The position numbers were made by a program, and so were the translations under genes. From Escherichia coli O157:H7 (GTDB lineage: Bacteria; Pseudomonadota; Gammaproteobacteria; Enterobacterales; Enterobacteriaceae): a stretch of DNA of 64,000 nt. The notes beneath the pieces were generated by a model, which was not told the origin of the DNA, did not search any database, and saw only the letters and a list, made by a program, of their open reading frames with translations. How positions within the stretch are numbered: the stretch's first letter is position 1; each line of letters opens with the position of its first letter. The stretch lies in NCBI RefSeq assembly GCF_013167455.1, contig NZ_CP038328.1; one strand, written 5' to 3'. Shown piece after piece: positions 26,020-58,995 of the stretch.

Positions 26020-28218
26020 TTATCTCCTGCGCAACAATCTTAACGCATTCGCTGTCACCAGCACCGTCGCACCCGTATCTGCCAGCACTGCCAGCCATAG
26101 TCCGGTCATCCCTAACAGCGTGGTGACGAGGAAGATCCCTTTCAGCCCCAGCGCAATAGTGATGTTCTGGCGGATATTGGCGTGAGTGGCGCGTGCCAGT
26201 TCAATCATTTGCACCAGACCGCGCAGGTGGTTATGGGTTAATGCTGCGTCGGCGGTTTCCAGCGCCACGTCTGTGCCGCTGCCCATTGCAATCCCGATGG
26301 CGGCAGCTTTCATCGCTGGCGCGTCGTTAATACCGTCACCGACCATCGCCAGCGGCGCATGTTGATTCAGCTCGGTCACCGCTTTGACTTTATCTTCCGG
26401 CAACAGGCCCGCTTTAAACTCCAGCCCCAGCTCCCCGGCAATTGCCGCCGCTGCGCGTGGATTATCGCCGGTGAGGATCACCCCTTTGACGCCCAGCGCG
26501 TTCAGTTCACTGATGGCAGTTGCAGCATCGGCGCGCAGGGTATCCTGCAATGCAATGATACCCAGCACGTCATCATTACGTACTACCAGCACAACCGTTT
26601 GCCCGGCGCTTTCCAGTTCATTAATCAAACCAGCAAATGCATCAGCGGGATGTTTCCCGGCAGCGCATATCAACACGCGCTCACCGTTAACCTGCGCTTC
26701 AATGCCAGACCCGACCAGCGCCCGCTGTGATTCGGCGGCGGGAATGGCGAGTGCAGCAACCTGTGCTTCGCGCACGATGGCCTGCGCCAGTGGATGCGTC
26801 GCGCCTTGCTCGACCGCCGCCGCCAGTGTCAGCAGTTCAGATTCACTAATACCCGTTGCCGGATGAATCGCGGTAACGCGCGGTTTACCGACGGTCAGCG
26901 TACCGGTTTTATCAAACGCCACCTGGGTAACACGACCCAGCTGTTCCAGCGCCGCTCCGCCTTTAATCAACGCCCCACGACGCGCTGCCGCCGCCAGCCC
27001 GGAGGTAATCGCCGCAGGCGTTGAGATAACTAACGCACACGGGCAGCCAATCAGCAGCAGCGTCAGCCCTTTATAAATCCACTCCTGCCAGCTGGTGGCA
27101 AACAGCAGCGGTGGCACCAGCGTCACCAGCAGAGCGACGGCCATAATCGCGGGCGTGTAAATACGGCTGAAACGGTCGATAAACCGCTCAATGGGTGCGC
27201 GACGCTCTTCGGCTTCTTCGATCAGTTTCAGAATCCGGTCAATGGCGCTGGCACCCGGTTCTGACAGCACTTCCAGCGTTACCAGACGGTCTACGCTGGT
27301 GGCTCCTGCAGGAACTTTATCGCCCGTTGCGCGCTCCACCGGAATAGATTCGCCGGTCAGGGCGCTTTCATCAAAACTGGCAAACGGTGAGAGCAGTTTA
27401 CCGTCGGCAGGCAAACGTCCACCTGCGGCGACTTCAATCACATCGCCAGGGCGCAGGCTGTTAATCGCCACCTCTTCCCGCTCACCGTTACGCAGGCGCG
27501 TGGCGGTTTCTGGTTTCAGCGCCATTAACGCGCTGACCTCTTGACGCGCGCGGCTGGCGGCCCAGCCTTCCAGTCGTTCACCAATCAAAAACAGCAGCAA
27601 CACCATCGCAGCTTCAGCCGTTGCGCCAATAAACAGTGCACCAATAGCGGCTACGCTCATTAAGGTTTCAATGGCGAAGTAGCTGCCGGATTTGATCAGC
27701 CGTAATGCCTGACGAGCAATCGGGTACAGCCCAACCAGCGTGGTCGCGATAAACGCCAGTTGCCCGAACGGATGATTAAATTGCTCCAAACCCCAGCTGA
27801 TTGCCATCATCACGATAAGCGTAATCAGCGGCAGATTCTCTTTCAGGCGCGATGCTTGTGGCTCGTCGGCGGCCTGCTCATCGCGCAGGGAATAGCCCGC
27901 TTTTTGCACCGCAGATTCAACTTGTGCACGGATGTCATTGTCGGCATCAACCACCAGTTTTTCGGTGGCGAACAACACCTGTACCTGATTCACGCCTGCA
28001 AGCTGGCGCACGGCATTTTCTACCTTGCGCGCACAGGCGGCGCAGTCCATGCCGCTGACTTTCCAGCTATAGCGGGTGCCGGAGACGTTTTCAGAGAGAG
28101 TTGGCGTGCTGGAACATGCGCCGTCGCAGCAACAGTCGTTGGCGTTCTGTACCGTGGTTAGCGGTTTGAACGCAGCAAATTGAGGGGCTTTCTTGCCGTG
28201 ATTGTCAGGAGTCGACAT
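26020..28218 (-). CDS. zntA: Zn/Cd/Pb-exporting P1B-type ATPase ZntA
   Basis: 732 aa; N-terminal metal-binding GMDCAAC, transmembrane CPC motif, phosphorylation motif DKTGTLT. Confidence 0.95.
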   Translation of the reverse strand: MSTPDNHGKKAPQFAAFKPLTTVQNANDCCCDGACSSTPTLSENVSGTRYSWKVSGMDCAACARKVENAVRQLAGVNQVQVLFATEKLVVDADNDIRAQVESAVQKAGYSLRDEQAADEPQASRLKENLPLITLIVMMAISWGLEQFNHPFGQLAFIATTLVGLYPIARQALRLIKSGSYFAIETLMSVAAIGALFIGATAEAAMVLLLFLIGERLEGWAASRARQEVSALMALKPETATRLRNGEREEVAINSLRPGDVIEVAAGGRLPADGKLLSPFASFDESALTGESIPVERATGDKVPAGATSVDRLVTLEVLSEPGASAIDRILKLIEEAEERRAPIERFIDRFSRIYTPAIMAVALLVTLVPPLLFATSWQEWIYKGLTLLLIGCPCALVISTPAAITSGLAAAARRGALIKGGAALEQLGRVTQVAFDKTGTLTVGKPRVTAIHPATGISESELLTLAAAVEQGATHPLAQAIVREAQVAALAIPAAESQRALVGSGIEAQVNGERVLICAAGKHPADAFAGLINELESAGQTVVLVVRNDDVLGIIALQDTLRADAATAISELNALGVKGVILTGDNPRAAAAIAGELGLEFKAGLLPEDKVKAVTELNQHAPLAMVGDGINDAPAMKAAAIGIAMGSGTDVALETADAALTHNHLRGLVQMIELARATHANIRQNITIALGLKGIFLVTTLLGMTGLWLAVLADTGATVLVTANALRLLRRR

Positions 28219-28253: not shown

Positions 28254-28285
28254 AGGATACACTCTGGAGTCGACTCCAGAGTCAA
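28254..28285 (-). promoter_or_regulatory. zntA promoter with ZntR (MerR-type) operator
   Basis: On the minus strand: TTGACT, a 20-bp spacer containing the perfect palindrome ACTCTGGAGTCGACTCCAGAGT (28261..28282), then TATCCT. Confidence 0.8.
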
Positions 28286-35013: not shown

Positions 35014-36117
35014 ATGAACATAAAGGGTAAAGCGTTACTGGCAGGATGTATCGCGCTGGCATTCAGCAATATGGCTCTGGCAGAAGATATTAAAGTCGCG
35101 GTCGTGGGCGCAATGTCCGGTCCGGTTGCGCAGTACGGTGACCAGGAGTTTACCGGCGCAGAGCAGGCGGTTGCGGATATCAACGCTAAAGGCGGCATTA
35201 AAGGCAACAAACTGCAAATCGTAAAATATGACGATGCCTGTGACCCGAAACAGGCGGTTGCGGTGGCGAACAAAGTCGTTAACGACGGCATTAAATACGT
35301 GATTGGTCACCTCTGTTCTTCATCAACGCAGCCTGCGTCTGACATCTACGAAGACGAAGGCATTTTAATGATCACCCCAGCGGCAACCGCGCCGGAGCTG
35401 ACCGCCCGTGGCTATCAGCTGATCCTGCGCACCACCGGCCTGGACTCCGACCAGGGGCCGACGGCGGCGAAATATATTCTTGAGAAAGTGAAACCGCAGC
35501 GTATTGCTATCGTTCACGACAAACAGCAATACGGCGAAGGTCTGGCACGAGCGGTGCAGGACGGCCTGAAGAAAGGCAATGCTAACGTGGTGTTCTTTGA
35601 TGGTATCACCGCCGGGGAAAAAGATTTCTCAACGCTGGTGGCGCGTCTGAAAAAAGAGAATATCGACTTCGTTTACTACGGCGGTTATCACCCGGAAATG
35701 GGGCAAATCCTGCGTCAGGCACGCGCGGCAGGGTTGAAAACTCAGTTTATGGGGCCGGAAGGCGTGGCTAACGTCTCGCTGTCTAACATTGCGGGCGAAT
35801 CAGCGGAAGGGCTGCTGGTGACCAAGCCGAAGAACTACGATCAGGTTCCGGCGAACAAACCCATTGTTGATGCGATCAAAGCGAAAAAACAGGACCCAAG
35901 CGGCGCATTCGTTTGGACCACCTACGCCGCGCTGCAATCTTTGCAGGCGGGCCTGAATCAGTCTGACGATCCGGCTGAAATCGCCAAATACCTGAAAGCG
36001 AACTCCGTGGATACCGTAATGGGACCGCTGACCTGGGATGAGAAAGGCGATCTGAAAGGCTTTGAGTTCGGTGTGTTTGACTGGCACGCCAACGGCACGG
36101 CAACCGATGCGAAGTAA
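35014..36117 (+). CDS. livJ: Leu/Ile/Val-binding periplasmic protein LivJ
   Basis: Start at [11 protein letters not shown] gives 367 aa with signal peptide; the sequence is a paralogue of the livK product downstream. Confidence 0.93.
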
Positions 36118-36137
36118 CAGATAGATAAATGAAAATG

Positions 36138-36169
36138 CCCGATGCGCTGAACTGCCATCGGGTTTTTTT
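36138..36169 (+). terminator. livJ intrinsic terminator
   Basis: Stem CCCGATG/CATCGGG with an 11-nt loop followed by TTTTTTT. Confidence 0.8.
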
Positions 36170-36219
36170 GTGTTTGTCGAAATGGTTGTAGAAAGATTAA
36201 ACAATCCAGGATATGCTTA

Positions 36220-36242
36220 ATGTACGGTGACATACCGTACAT
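36220..36242 (+). promoter_or_regulatory. Palindromic operator upstream of the toxin-antitoxin operon
   Basis: Perfect dyad ATGTACGGT-GACAT-ACCGTACAT directly upstream of a TATTAT -10-like hexamer and the antitoxin ribosome-binding site. Confidence 0.55.
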
Positions 36243-36266
36243 ATTATACGGAGCAGGAGAGTTCAC

Positions 36267-36533
36267 ATGTCTGCTGTTAAAAAGCAGCGTATCGATCTGC
36301 GTTTAACTGACGATGACAAAAGTATGATTGAGGAAGCGGCAGCGATATCTAATCAGTCCGTCAGCCAATTTATGTTGAACAGCGCTTCGCAGCGGGCTGC
36401 GGAAGTGATTGAACAGCATCGGCGGGTGATCCTCAATGAGGAATCCTGGACGCGGGTGATGGATGCGCTGAGTAATCCACCGTCACCAGGTGAAAAGCTA
36501 AAACGTGCGGCAAAACGTCTTCAGGGAATGTAA
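36267..36533 (+). CDS. DUF1778-family antitoxin (TacA/AtaR/ItaR-like) of a GNAT toxin-antitoxin module
   Basis: 88 aa, 6 nt upstream of a GNAT toxin gene; small charged protein typical of DUF1778 antitoxins. Confidence 0.8.
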   Translation: MSAVKKQRIDLRLTDDDKSMIEEAAAISNQSVSQFMLNSASQRAAEVIEQHRRVILNEESWTRVMDALSNPPSPGEKLKRAAKRLQGM

Positions 36534-36539
36534 TAATTT

Positions 36540-37067
36540 ATGGATGATCTGACGATAGAGATTCTGACCGATGATGCAGATTATGATCTACAGCGATTCG
36601 ACTGCGGCGAGGAAGCGTTAAATCTCTTTCTGACGACACATCTCGTTCGTCAACATCGCAACAAAATTCTGCGAGCGTATATCCTTTGTCGCAACACTCC
36701 AGAACGTCAGGTGCTGGGATATTACACATTATGCGGCAGTTGTTTTGAACGAGCCGCATTGCCCTCGAAATCGAAACAGAAAAAAATTCCCTACAAAAAT
36801 ATTCCCAGCGTTACTCTTGGGCGTCTGGCAATTGATCGTTCATTACAGGGGCAGGGATGGGGAGCAACACTGGTTGCTCATGCCATGAAAGTCGTCTGGT
36901 CAGCCTCTTTAGCGGTAGGTATTCACGGTCTTTTTGTCGAGGCGCTGAATGAAAAAGCCCATACGTTTTATAAATCGCTGGGCTTTATCCCTTTAGTCGG
37001 GGAAAACGAAAATGCGTTATTTTTCCCAACCAAATCCATTGAACTGCTTTTTACACAGAGCGATTAA
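36540..37067 (+). CDS. GNAT-fold acetyltransferase toxin (TacT/AtaT/ItaT-family tRNA-acetylating toxin)
   Basis: 175 aa; motifs FDCGEEALNLFL and LGRLAIDRSLQGQGWGATL are typical of aminoacyl-tRNA-acetylating GNAT toxins. Confidence 0.8.
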   Translation: MDDLTIEILTDDADYDLQRFDCGEEALNLFLTTHLVRQHRNKILRAYILCRNTPERQVLGYYTLCGSCFERAALPSKSKQKKIPYKNIPSVTLGRLAIDRSLQGQGWGATLVAHAMKVVWSASLAVGIHGLFVEALNEKAHTFYKSLGFIPLVGENENALFFPTKSIELLFTQSD

Positions 37068-37447
37068 CGCTTCTCCCAGCCGCCCTGCTGTGCCGTAAAT
37101 CCCAGTGCCTGCATAAACGCCGTCATCACACCGCGATCTTCCACGCCTGCATCCGCCATCCACCAGCATGAAACGCCAGGATTGTTACGCAAAACCTCTT
37201 CCAGCAGATATTGCCCCACACCGCGACGTCGAGTGACTTCCCGCACGCGCAGGGAATCCAGTGCCCCCTCGGTGCCGCTTAAGGTTACCCGCACGGCAGC
37301 AAGCAGGCGCTCGTTAAAACGCGCGGCGTAGATGCGGTGGTTATCGTCAACCTGTAAAGAGGAAGGGGAATACTCCGGCCAGATCTTTTGCAGGTCAATC
37401 CGGTCCTGGTCGCTAAATTTTTCTAATCGAATGATGGTCAGCTTCAT
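37064..37447 (-). CDS. panZ: PanD maturation factor PanZ (PanM/YhhK; GNAT fold)
   Basis: 127 aa matching PanZ; its 3' end overlaps the toxin gene's 3' end by 4 bp (convergent). Confidence 0.85.
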   Translation of the reverse strand: MKLTIIRLEKFSDQDRIDLQKIWPEYSPSSLQVDDNHRIYAARFNERLLAAVRVTLSGTEGALDSLRVREVTRRRGVGQYLLEEVLRNNPGVSCWWMADAGVEDRGVMTAFMQALGFTAQQGGWEKR

Positions 37448-37870
37448 GGGTAACCCGTGTAAATCACAAAAGTGGAACCAGTGTAGCGAAATAATTTAAT
37501 CGGAGGCTTTCTCTTTTTTATTTCTTTTGGCAGGTGATTAATTTCTTAACAGCAATAATTACAAAGTTAAAACATTAGAGAATGAAAAATACCCAGCATA
37601 ATCCCCTGAATGGTAGTGAATTATTCCGCCCTTTGTGCCGTTATTTTATGCTGACAAAGGCACTTTTTTCTGTTTATCTATCAATAAATTCAGAATATTA
37701 TCTGTTCTTAATCGACTGAAAAATAGGGACTTTAATCGCTATTATCACAAAATACTGCGCTAAACCCTTAATCAGACAGGCAAAAACAGTGCAGTATAAA
37801 AAAAGAACAGTCTGATTTGTTAACACATAAAAACAAAGCAACACAACATCACGAATGGGGATTTTTGACT

Positions 37871-38980
37871 ATGAAACGGAATGCGAAAACTATCATCGCA
37901 GGGATGATTGCACTGGCAATTTCACACACCGCTTTAGCCGACGATATTAAAGTTGCCGTTGTCGGCGCGATGTCCGGCCCGATTGCCCAGTGGGGCGATA
38001 TGGAATTTAACGGCGCGCGTCAGGCGATTAAAGACATTAATGCCAAAGGGGGAATTAAAGGCGATAAGCTGGTTGGCGTAGAATATGACGACGCCTGCGA
38101 CCCGAAACAAGCCGTTGCGGTCGCCAACAAAATCGTTAATGACGGCATTAAATACGTTATTGGTCATCTGTGTTCTTCTTCTACCCAGCCTGCGTCAGAT
38201 ATCTATGAAGACGAAGGTATTCTTATGATCTCGCCGGGAGCGACAAACCCGGAGCTGACCCAACGCGGTTATCAACACATTATGCGTACTGCCGGGCTGG
38301 ACTCTTCCCAGGGGCCAACGGCGGCAAAATACATTCTTGAGACGGTGAAGCCCCAGCGCATCGCCATCATTCACGACAAACAACAGTATGGCGAAGGGCT
38401 GGCGCGTTCGGTGCAGGACGGGCTGAAAGCGGCTAACGCCAACGTCGTCTTCTTCGACGGTATTACCGCCGGGGAGAAAGATTTCTCCGCGCTGATCGCC
38501 CGCCTGAAAAAAGAAAACATCGACTTCGTTTACTACGGCGGTTACTACCCGGAAATGGGGCAGATGCTGCGCCAGGCCCGTTCCGTTGGCCTGAAAACCC
38601 AGTTTATGGGGCCGGAAGGTGTGGGTAATGCGTCGTTGTCGAACATTGCCGGTGATGCCGCCGAAGGCATGTTGGTCACTATGCCAAAACGCTATGACCA
38701 GGATCCGGCAAACCAGGGCATCGTTGATGCGCTGAAAGCAGACAAGAAAGATCCGTCCGGGCCTTATGTCTGGATCACCTACGCGGCGGTGCAATCTCTG
38801 GCAACTGCCCTTGAACGTACCGGCAGCGATGAGCCGCTGGCGCTGGTGAAAGATTTAAAAGCTAACGGTGCAAACACCGTGATTGGGCCGCTGAACTGGG
38901 ATGAAAAAGGCGATCTTAAGGGATTTGATTTTGGTGTCTTCCAGTGGCACGCCGACGGTTCATCCACGGCAGCCAAGTGA
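37871..38980 (+). CDS. livK: Leucine-specific periplasmic binding protein LivK
   Basis: Start at [11 protein letters not shown] gives 369 aa with signal peptide; first gene of livKHMGF. Confidence 0.93.
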
Positions 38981-53644: not shown

Positions 53645-53734
53645 GCGATCAGGAAGACCCTCGCGGAGAACCTGAAAGCACGACATTGCTCACATTGCTT
53701 CCAGTATTACTTAGCCAGCCGGGTGCTGGCTTTT
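53645..53734 (+). ncRNA. ryhB: RyhB small RNA (Fur-repressed, Hfq-dependent iron-sparing sRNA)
   Basis: 90-nt sequence GCGATCAGGAAGACCCTCGCGGAGAACCTGAAAGCACGACATTGCTCACATTGCTTCCAGTATTACTTAGCCAGCCGGGTGCTGGCTTTT matches RyhB, including the terminal hairpin AGCCAGC/GCTGGCT plus U-run; lies between yhhY and yhhX. Confidence 0.9.
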
Positions 53735-53856
53735 TTTTTGATCTTTCGTTCTCAATTTATCCTCGGGAAGTGCTTGTGTTCGTTATGCGCACTCCAGTAG
53801 GAACCACGTCCGCTTTGCGCTAAGGTGTAAATAACCACCTTAAAAAGGACGAAATC

Positions 53857-57600: not shown

Positions 57601-58941
57601 GTGACTACATTAACGCTTGTTTTAACAGCAGTAGGGTCTGTTTTACTGCTGCTGTTTTTAGTCATGAAGGCGCGTATGCACGCTTTCCTGGCTTTAATGG
57701 TGGTGTCCATGGGGGCTGGCCTTTTTTCCGGTATGCCGCTCGATAAAATCGCAGCGACGATGGAAAAAGGGATGGGAGGCACCCTCGGCTTCCTGGCGGT
57801 GGTTGTCGCCCTGGGAGCTATGTTTGGCAAGATCTTACATGAAACCGGCGCAGTCGATCAGATTGCCGTCAAAATGCTTAAATCCTTCGGTCACAGCCGC
57901 GCGCATTATGCCATCGGCCTTGCGGGGCTGGTCTGTGCGCTACCGCTGTTCTTTGAAGTGGCGATTGTTCTGCTGATTAGCGTTGCTTTCTCAATGGCGC
58001 GCCACACCGGTACGAACCTGGTGAAGCTGGTAATCCCATTATTCGCAGGCGTGGCGGCCGCGGCGGCGTTCCTGGTGCCAGGGCCAGCGCCAATGCTGCT
58101 GGCATCGCAGATGAACGCCGATTTTGGCTGGATGATCCTGATTGGCCTGTGTGCGGCAATTCCGGGAATGATTATTGCCGGGCCGCTGTGGGGTAACTTC
58201 ATCAGCCGTTACGTTGAGCTGCATATTCCTGACGACATCAGCGAACCGCATCTCGGCGAAGGCAAAATGCCATCCTTCGGATTCAGCCTGTCGCTGATCC
58301 TGCTGCCGCTGGTGCTGGTAGGGCTGAAAACCATTGCCGCGCGTTTTGTGCCGGAAGGCTCTACCGCTTACGAATGGTTCGAGTTTATTGGTCATCCGTT
58401 TACCGCGATTCTGGTTGCTTGTCTGGTAGCGATTTATGGCCTGGCAATGCGTCAGGGCATGCCAAAAGACAAAGTGATGGAGATTTGCGGTCACGCGCTG
58501 CAACCGGCGGGGATCATTCTGCTGGTGATTGGTGCGGGCGGCGTGTTCAAACAGGTGCTGGTTGACTCTGGCGTAGGTCCGGCACTGGGCGAAGCGTTAA
58601 CCGGCATGGGCCTGCCGATTGCCATCACCTGCTTCGTGCTGGCCGCTGCAGTGCGCATCATTCAGGGTTCTGCAACCGTTGCCTGTTTAACGGCGGTGGG
58701 ACTGGTGATGCCGGTTATTGAACAACTGAACTACTCCGGTGCGCAAATGGCGGCGCTGTCGATTTGTATCGCCGGTGGTTCGATTGTTGTCAGCCACGTT
58801 AACGACGCTGGTTTCTGGTTGTTCGGTAAATTTACCGGCGCGACCGAAGCCGAAACGCTGAAAACCTGGACCATGATGGAAACCATCCTCGGCACTGTCG
58901 GTGCCATCGTTGGGATGATTGCGTTCCAGCTGTTGAGTTAA
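57601..58941 (+). CDS. gntU: Low-affinity gluconate transporter GntU (GntP family)
   Basis: 446-aa polytopic GntP-family permease with a GTG start. Confidence 0.9.
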   Translation: MTTLTLVLTAVGSVLLLLFLVMKARMHAFLALMVVSMGAGLFSGMPLDKIAATMEKGMGGTLGFLAVVVALGAMFGKILHETGAVDQIAVKMLKSFGHSRAHYAIGLAGLVCALPLFFEVAIVLLISVAFSMARHTGTNLVKLVIPLFAGVAAAAAFLVPGPAPMLLASQMNADFGWMILIGLCAAIPGMIIAGPLWGNFISRYVELHIPDDISEPHLGEGKMPSFGFSLSLILLPLVLVGLKTIAARFVPEGSTAYEWFEFIGHPFTAILVACLVAIYGLAMRQGMPKDKVMEICGHALQPAGIILLVIGAGGVFKQVLVDSGVGPALGEALTGMGLPIAITCFVLAAAVRIIQGSATVACLTAVGLVMPVIEQLNYSGAQMAALSICIAGGSIVVSHVNDAGFWLFGKFTGATEAETLKTWTMMETILGTVGAIVGMIAFQLLS

Positions 58942-58952
58942 TTACTGCGACA

Positions 58953-58995
58953 AATTACTGCGAGCTTGCTCGCAGTAATTCATTTCTCTTTTCTC
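58953..58995 (+). terminator. gntU terminator hairpin (12-bp perfect stem)
   Basis: AATTACTGCGAG-CTTG-CTCGCAGTAATT followed by a pyrimidine-rich tract. Confidence 0.6.

Follow-up and report, generated by a model that had tools for sequence, protein, structure and literature searches.

The module between livJ and panM in the 64,000-nucleotide stretch of Escherichia coli O157:H7 DNA analysed here (the window) is almost certainly ataR-ataT, the type II toxin-antitoxin operon known from the chromosome of this organism. AtaRT has been characterised since 2017 by genetics, biochemistry and structure, and the module of the window is thus an already known system and an ordinary finding, which an earlier reading of the letters without database searches (the sequence-only reading) did not recognise as such. 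The value of this result lies in the correct annotation of the window, and it carries little weight as a discovery; as a tRNA-acetylating toxin module, ataRT marks the genome as O157-like rather than K-12-like. The features of the locus, by position in the window, are as follows.

35014..36117, plus strand: livJ, branched-chain amino acid binding protein, the upstream neighbour (ORF list; same stop codon in RefSeq)
36118..37063, no strand: segment that varies with respect to K-12, 946 bp here and a 187-bp REP/BIME-containing spacer in K-12
36132..36169, plus strand: intrinsic terminator-like hairpin and run of seven T after livJ (RNA folding)
36189..36194, plus strand: candidate -35 element TAGAAA, inferred from a hexamer search and cross-genus alignment
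36212..36217, plus strand: candidate -10 element TATGCT, spaced 17 bp from the -35 and ending 2 nt short of the dyad (same search and alignment)
36220..36242, no strand: assigned ataRT operator, perfect 9-5-9 dyad ATGTACGGT-GACAT-ACCGTACAT (inverted-repeat search; arms as in the kacAT operator)
36255..36259, plus strand: Shine-Dalgarno sequence AGGAG of ataR, 7 nt before the ATG, read from the sequence
36267..36533, plus strand: ataR, 88-aa ribbon-helix-helix antitoxin and repressor of the TacA/DUF1778 family (PDB identity, Pfam, RefSeq)
36540..37067, plus strand: ataT, 175-aa GNAT aminoacyl-tRNA N-acetyltransferase toxin (PDB identity, Pfam, RefSeq)
37064..37447, minus strand: panM/panZ, 127-aa PanD maturation factor, convergent (NCBIfam NF033213; panM in RefSeq)

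Identity and proposed mechanism of the module

The identification is carried by the two proteins. The 175-aa product matches PDB chain 6GTS_A with 100% identity over all 175 residues (E 2.8e-117), and the 88-aa product matches 6AJM_C, 6GTO and 6GTS with 100% identity over all 88 residues. Differences from the AtaT of 6AJM, 7CHD, 6GTP/Q/R and 6AJN amount to one or a few residues or to tags, and KacT (5ZGN, 5XUN) comes next as a relative. The sequence-only reading, which had proposed a DUF1778-type antitoxin and a GNAT toxin of the family that acetylates charged tRNAs and had called for a comparison with known GNAT toxins, was therefore correct about both proteins, since that comparison returns AtaT itself at full length. 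Pfam places AtaR in PF08681 (TacA1, formerly DUF1778; 7.9e-26) and finds the GNAT domains PF13508/PF00583 in AtaT. RefSeq names the products of the livJ-panM interval 'type II toxin-antitoxin system antitoxin AtaR' and 'toxin acetyltransferase AtaT', and the chromosomes in which RefSeq has ataR, ataT and panM match the window at 100% identity along 1601 bp. The genes correspond to Z4833-Z4832 in EDL933 (PMC7957018) and to ECs4308-ECs4307 in Sakai (PMC7470980). According to the ORF list the operon is bicistronic with the antitoxin first, ataT starting 6 nt after the ataR stop codon. The catalytic Y144 of AtaT and its G108 are invariant among 22 diverse homologues, the acetyl-CoA-binding glycine region Q-G-x-G-x-G is intact in the window sequence, and the translation of ataR carries R8, D10 and R12. 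NCBIfam gave sub-threshold matches only and no hit to a dedicated HMM for either protein, the PADLOC anti-phage defence models matched neither AtaR nor AtaT at E <= 0.01, and a search of the 64-kb window for a second AtaT-like gene (ataRT2) found none.

For the way in which the module may work, the toxic effect, the acetylation of tRNAs, the architecture of the hexamer and its binding to the operator are taken from the literature on the identical proteins, to which the present analysis adds protein identity, the genes, their position and the operator half-sites, together with promoter hexamers and a coverage of +1 by the dyad that we infer here. A weak sigma-70 promoter would drive transcription of ataR and then of ataT. 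Free AtaT would dimerise and acetylate the alpha-amino group of aminoacyl-tRNAs using acetyl-CoA, and translation would be blocked as a consequence. Initiator Met-tRNAfMet was the first target to be reported, followed later by Gly-, Trp-, Tyr- and Phe-tRNAs (PMC7595197), and toxicity of the identical protein through aminoacyl-tRNA acetylation is reported to be neutralised by the antitoxin (PMC7595197, PMC7470980). AtaR, which consists of an N-terminal ribbon-helix-helix (RHH) domain and a disordered C-terminal tail, would keep AtaT monomeric within an AtaT-AtaR4-AtaT hexamer. AtaT is reported to be active as a dimer whose formation AtaR prevents, and the hexamer to bind a palindromic operator with a high affinity that excess toxin lowers (PMC6698736, PMC8138530, PMC10135005). 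The two RHH dimers of the hexamer would then sit on the two half-sites of the dyad at 36220-36242 and repress the operon, and an excess of AtaT would alter the stoichiometry such that the DNA is released (conditional cooperativity).

Probable operator and candidate promoter of ataRT

The perfect 9-5-9 dyad with the spacer GACAT that the sequence-only reading had described is present, with arms of 9 nt (36220-36228 and 36234-36242) that are 100% complementary, stand 5 nt apart and lie 24 nt upstream of ataR. The dyad alone is statistically not decisive: perfect 9-nt inverted repeats with a spacer of at most 10 nt number 17 in the 64-kb window, compared with 3.4 +/- 1.8 in shuffled sequences. 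What gives it weight is its position 24 nt before ataR, together with half-sites that recur in a crystallised operator: its arms are those of the kacAT operator 27-mer AAATGTACGGTTATTAACCGTACATGA that was crystallised with KacAT (5ZGN), the 5-nt spacer being different. In KacA, R12 and D10 contact bases specifically, and mutation of R8 or R12 abolishes DNA binding (PMC6698736). The 8-nt arms ATGTACGG/CCGTACAT are invariant and the spacer is variable at five Enterobacteriaceae loci (O157, U12A, which carries the second E. coli allele, Pluralibacter, Pseudescherichia vulneris and K. pneumoniae), and the window has no GTACGG-N7-CCGTAC site other than the ataRT dyad. Because of the kacAT-identical arms, the R8, D10 and R12 of AtaR, the invariance of the 8-nt arms and the uniqueness of the site in the window, we take the dyad at 36220-36242 to be the ataRT operator. 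Its earlier designation as a candidate autoregulatory site is thus strengthened, given the match to the crystallised half-sites and given that the literature has AtaRT on a palindromic operator (PMC6698736, PMC8138530).

The proposal that the dyad overlaps the -10 element fared less well. A strict consensus scan of 36050-37550 for promoters and terminators returned nothing (no promoter at 9/12), relaxed hexamer matching gave two promoter options at 8/12, and 2 nt separate the best comparative -10 candidate from the dyad downstream of it. We favour TATGCT because a -10-like hexamer always occurs 1-2 nt before the dyad in the cross-genus alignment (O157, U12A, Pluralibacter, P. vulneris and K. 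pneumoniae kacAT), being TATGCT in E. coli and TAAACT, TAAAAT or TATATT in other genera; at the aligned -35 position the other genera have TTGAAA/TTGAGT. With the -10 at 36212-36217 the start site would fall inside the left arm, and it is therefore probably the region around the start, and not the -10, that the dyad covers. This agrees with the reported position of the kacAT palindrome across the site of transcription initiation (PMC6698736). Under either promoter layout, a bound hexamer would be in a position to block RNA polymerase. A by-product of the analysis is thus a comparative placement of the ataRT promoter relative to its operator.

Two other readings concern the parts of the module themselves. 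It could be argued that the 175-aa protein is a housekeeping GNAT, either RimI-like or a metabolic acetyltransferase, and the 88-aa ORF an unrelated small regulator, since NCBIfam does give weak sub-threshold matches to RimI and PRK10514. However, these reach 20.3 bits against a cutoff of 86.4 and 20.1 bits against 134, respectively, and it was homology to housekeeping GNATs that the sequence-only reading had named as evidence against a toxin. Moreover, the 175-aa protein shares 100% of its residues with the AtaT structures and 68% with the KacT toxin, the toxin is always paired with a PF08681 antitoxin, and both toxicity and tRNA acetylation are on record (PMC7595197, PMC7470980). We reject this reading on the strength of the sequence identity to the characterised toxin and see virtually no chance that it is correct. 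Only slightly less improbable is the idea that the dyad serves chiefly as a hairpin in the 5' leader of the ataRT RNA, affecting stability or attenuation, rather than as a DNA operator. If TATGCT is the -10, most of the dyad would indeed be transcribed and a 9-bp stem could form. However, the half-sites are conserved in sequence and not just in pairing, at five enterobacterial loci and at 69 distant toxin-antitoxin loci, while the spacer between them varies freely, and we saw no compensatory changes in the arms by which pairing is kept and sequence altered. The same half-sites are read base-specifically by KacA in the crystal structure, and the motif co-occurs with an R-x-[DE]-x-R beta-strand. 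Conservation at the sequence level and the KacA base contacts led us to reject the hairpin, and we retain the dyad as the putative operator of ataRT.

Further features were noticed elsewhere in the window. The only Rfam match in the window is the small RNA RyhB (53674-53738, plus strand; RF00057, 83 bits). A perfect 22-nt palindrome, ACTCTGGAGTCGACTCCAGAGT, lies at 28261-28282 just upstream of a 732-aa minus-strand ORF (26020-28218) and presumably resembles the ZntR (MerR-type) operator of the zntA promoter. Directly after an ORF ending at 58941, a perfect inverted repeat with 13-nt arms and a 2-nt loop (58953-58980) is probably a terminator or a REP-like hairpin.

Insertion or loss at the livJ-panM site

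The module does follow a livJ terminator, as had been proposed. Downstream of livJ, at about 36132-36169, a hairpin of -25.9 kcal/mol (z -6.25, with no shuffle folding as well) is followed by seven T residues; the consensus scan probably missed it because loops of only 3-8 nt were allowed. At the other end, the claim that the toxin gene overlaps the 3' end of the convergent panZ by 4 bp is likewise borne out: ataT and panM share 37064-37067, where TTAA supplies both stop codons, and RefSeq has the same overlap. The panM product scores 190 bits with NF033213 (cutoff 68). No intrinsic terminator was detected between the convergent ataT and panM in the interval 36900-37450, and therefore each transcript may run antisense into the other gene, a read-through that could permit transcriptional interference. 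The paralogous binding-protein genes livJ (35014-36117) and livK (37871-38980), with products that share about 78% identity, flank the module and panM.

Alignment of the window, K-12 and U12A defines the variable segment, which begins right after the livJ stop codon. Both ataR and ataT are missing at the livJ-panM site of K-12, which bears out the suspicion that K-12 has no such genes there. The 3' end of livJ differs by spacer allele, with the hairpin and T7 terminator in O157 versus REP/BIME elements in K-12, and the hairpin-terminator, which K-12 lacks, itself lies within the variable segment. Of 5426 complete E. coli genomes, 1621 (~30%) carry the 183 bp specific to the module (36118-36300), once in each and always on the chromosome; 974 genomes carry an allele of >=99% identity and 565 an allele of 90-95%.

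The sequence-only reading held that the module was inserted between livJ and panZ. Of this claim the polymorphism with respect to K-12, by presence and absence, stands, and the insertion is not established. It is possible that the module was recently inserted by horizontal transfer into an ancestral K-12-like livJ-panM spacer, a scenario that we consider rather doubtful, albeit a serious one. About 70% of complete E. coli genomes are without the module, homologues of 60-69% identity are frequent on conjugative plasmids, and the homologues in Klebsiella, Enterobacter, Mangrovibacter and Rahnella reside at other sites, not beside livJ or panM. In addition, the K-12 livJ-panM spacer, searched for module remnants, gave chance-level matches of 7-13 nt only and no clear remnant. 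However, no mobility genes and no significant direct repeats flank the module in the window, and a Pluralibacter sp. MAG (L037:6882-9342) has the order livJ-ataR-ataT-panM-livK with the identical 4-bp overlap of the ataT and panM stops. Its proteins are 83% (AtaR), 74% (AtaT), 78% (PanM) and 94% (LivJ) identical to those of the window, so that the divergence of AtaR and AtaT is similar to that of PanM. Also speaking against a recent insertion, in Pseudescherichia vulneris (L010:10-32) about 280 bp separate livJ from the operator downstream of it, at the locus edge, the existence of two diverged E. coli alleles suggests long residence, and, as weak evidence, GACGAT beyond the panM stop is common to K-12 and the 3' end of ataT in U12A. 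Since Pluralibacter has the same gene order and overlap, the livJ-ataRT-panM arrangement is either older than E. coli or the product of an exchange between genera. And because the occupied state and the 4-bp overlap are common to another genus, we regard a long residence of the module, followed by its loss in K-12-like lineages, as no less likely than a recent insertion and perhaps somewhat more so. The comparison thus yields, as a further by-product, evidence for the occupied livJ-panM site being old.

Proposed recognition classes and known systems

How far does this operator extend beyond E. coli? A scan for ATGTACGGT-N6-CCGTACAT in one genome per species (298 Gb) found 86 loci (L004-L089), compared with about 35 expected for equiprobable bases. 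An AtaR- or AtaT-like gene (27-83% identity) lies within 700 bp on the correct side at 69 of them; of the other 17, 5 are cut by the end of the locus. Thus, ATGTACGG-N7-CCGTACAT adjoins GNAT/TacA-family toxin-antitoxin genes in many phyla, despite proteins that are only about 30% identical. The loci belong to Alpha-, Beta-, Gamma- and Deltaproteobacteria, Bacteroidota, Acidobacteriota, Coriobacteriia, Chloroflexota and others. By iterative profile search, an AtaR-like ORF lies just downstream of the motif at 70 loci, and 68 of these 70 antitoxin ORFs have R-x-[D/E]-x-R near the N-terminus. From these comparisons, the recognition class of AtaR appears to be very widely conserved.

A second sample was drawn by protein similarity instead of by motif (tblastn with AtaT) and comprised 14 plasmid loci, the upstream region being examined in the 10 that have an annotated antitoxin. 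Antitoxins with R-x-[D/E]-x-R (5 loci) are preceded by GTACGG-N7-CCGTAC, in one case with one core mismatch, and the DUF1778 antitoxins whose beta-strand reads N-[IL]-R-A (5 loci: L093, L094, L099, L100 and L101) have GTATAGC/GCTATAC-type repeats instead. Several plasmid loci show two tandem sites of the GTATAGC...GCTATAC type. Since the type of the antitoxin beta-strand tracks the type of the operator repeat in this sample, there would be at least two DNA-recognition classes in the family, which suggests two recognition codes within one DUF1778 antitoxin family. We found no statement of two such classes in the literature searched, and it may be implicit in further structural papers.

AtaT homologues occur in 3533 of 72,556 plasmid records, 524 at 60-80% identity, and two E. 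coli IncF plasmids (NZ_CP081792.1 and NZ_CP082068.1; 63-69% identity) have the same GTACGG-N7-CCGTAC core in the promoter region. One could propose that GTACGG/CCGTAC and R-x-[D/E]-x-R form a recognition pair that has persisted nearly unchanged across phyla in one TacA/DUF1778-GNAT branch, such that non-cognate modules in one cell could cross-repress each other's promoters, and, separately, that livJ-ataRT-panM may be the ancestral state, lost in K-12-like lineages. Taken as a whole, this proposal is speculative, and we think it unlikely that all its parts hold together. If it were true, cross-repression in E. coli would concern the plasmid homologues that are 60-69% identical to AtaRT and have the same half-sites. 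As a by-product, the survey marks GTACGG-N7-CCGTAC as a cross-phylum signature of one GNAT-RHH branch, and transcriptional cross-talk between modules on chromosome and plasmid is a possibility.

Among known systems, the AtaR-AtaT of E. coli O157:H7 (PDB 6AJM, 6AJN, 6GTO-6GTS and 7CHD) agrees with the module of the window in its proteins, gene order, livJ-panM position and RefSeq names; there is no difference, and it is the same system. Closest to it is KacA-KacT of Klebsiella pneumoniae (5ZGN, 5XUN), with identities of 68% between KacT and AtaT and of 73% between KacA and AtaR (tblastn, ATCC 13883 locus). KacA-KacT has the same operator arms ATGTACGGT/ACCGTACAT and the same readout by R8, D10 and R12, and it also forms an A4T2 hexamer. 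However, its operator has the spacer TATTA where ataRT has GACAT, and its site differs as well, neither livJ nor panM being present within the examined K. pneumoniae locus. TacAT1-3 of Salmonella and AtaRT2 and ItaRT of E. coli share with AtaRT the architecture of a GNAT toxin with a PF08681 antitoxin, as well as aminoacyl-tRNA acetylation, but they differ from it in tRNA specificity, and AtaT2 is only 29.2% identical to AtaT (PMC7470980).
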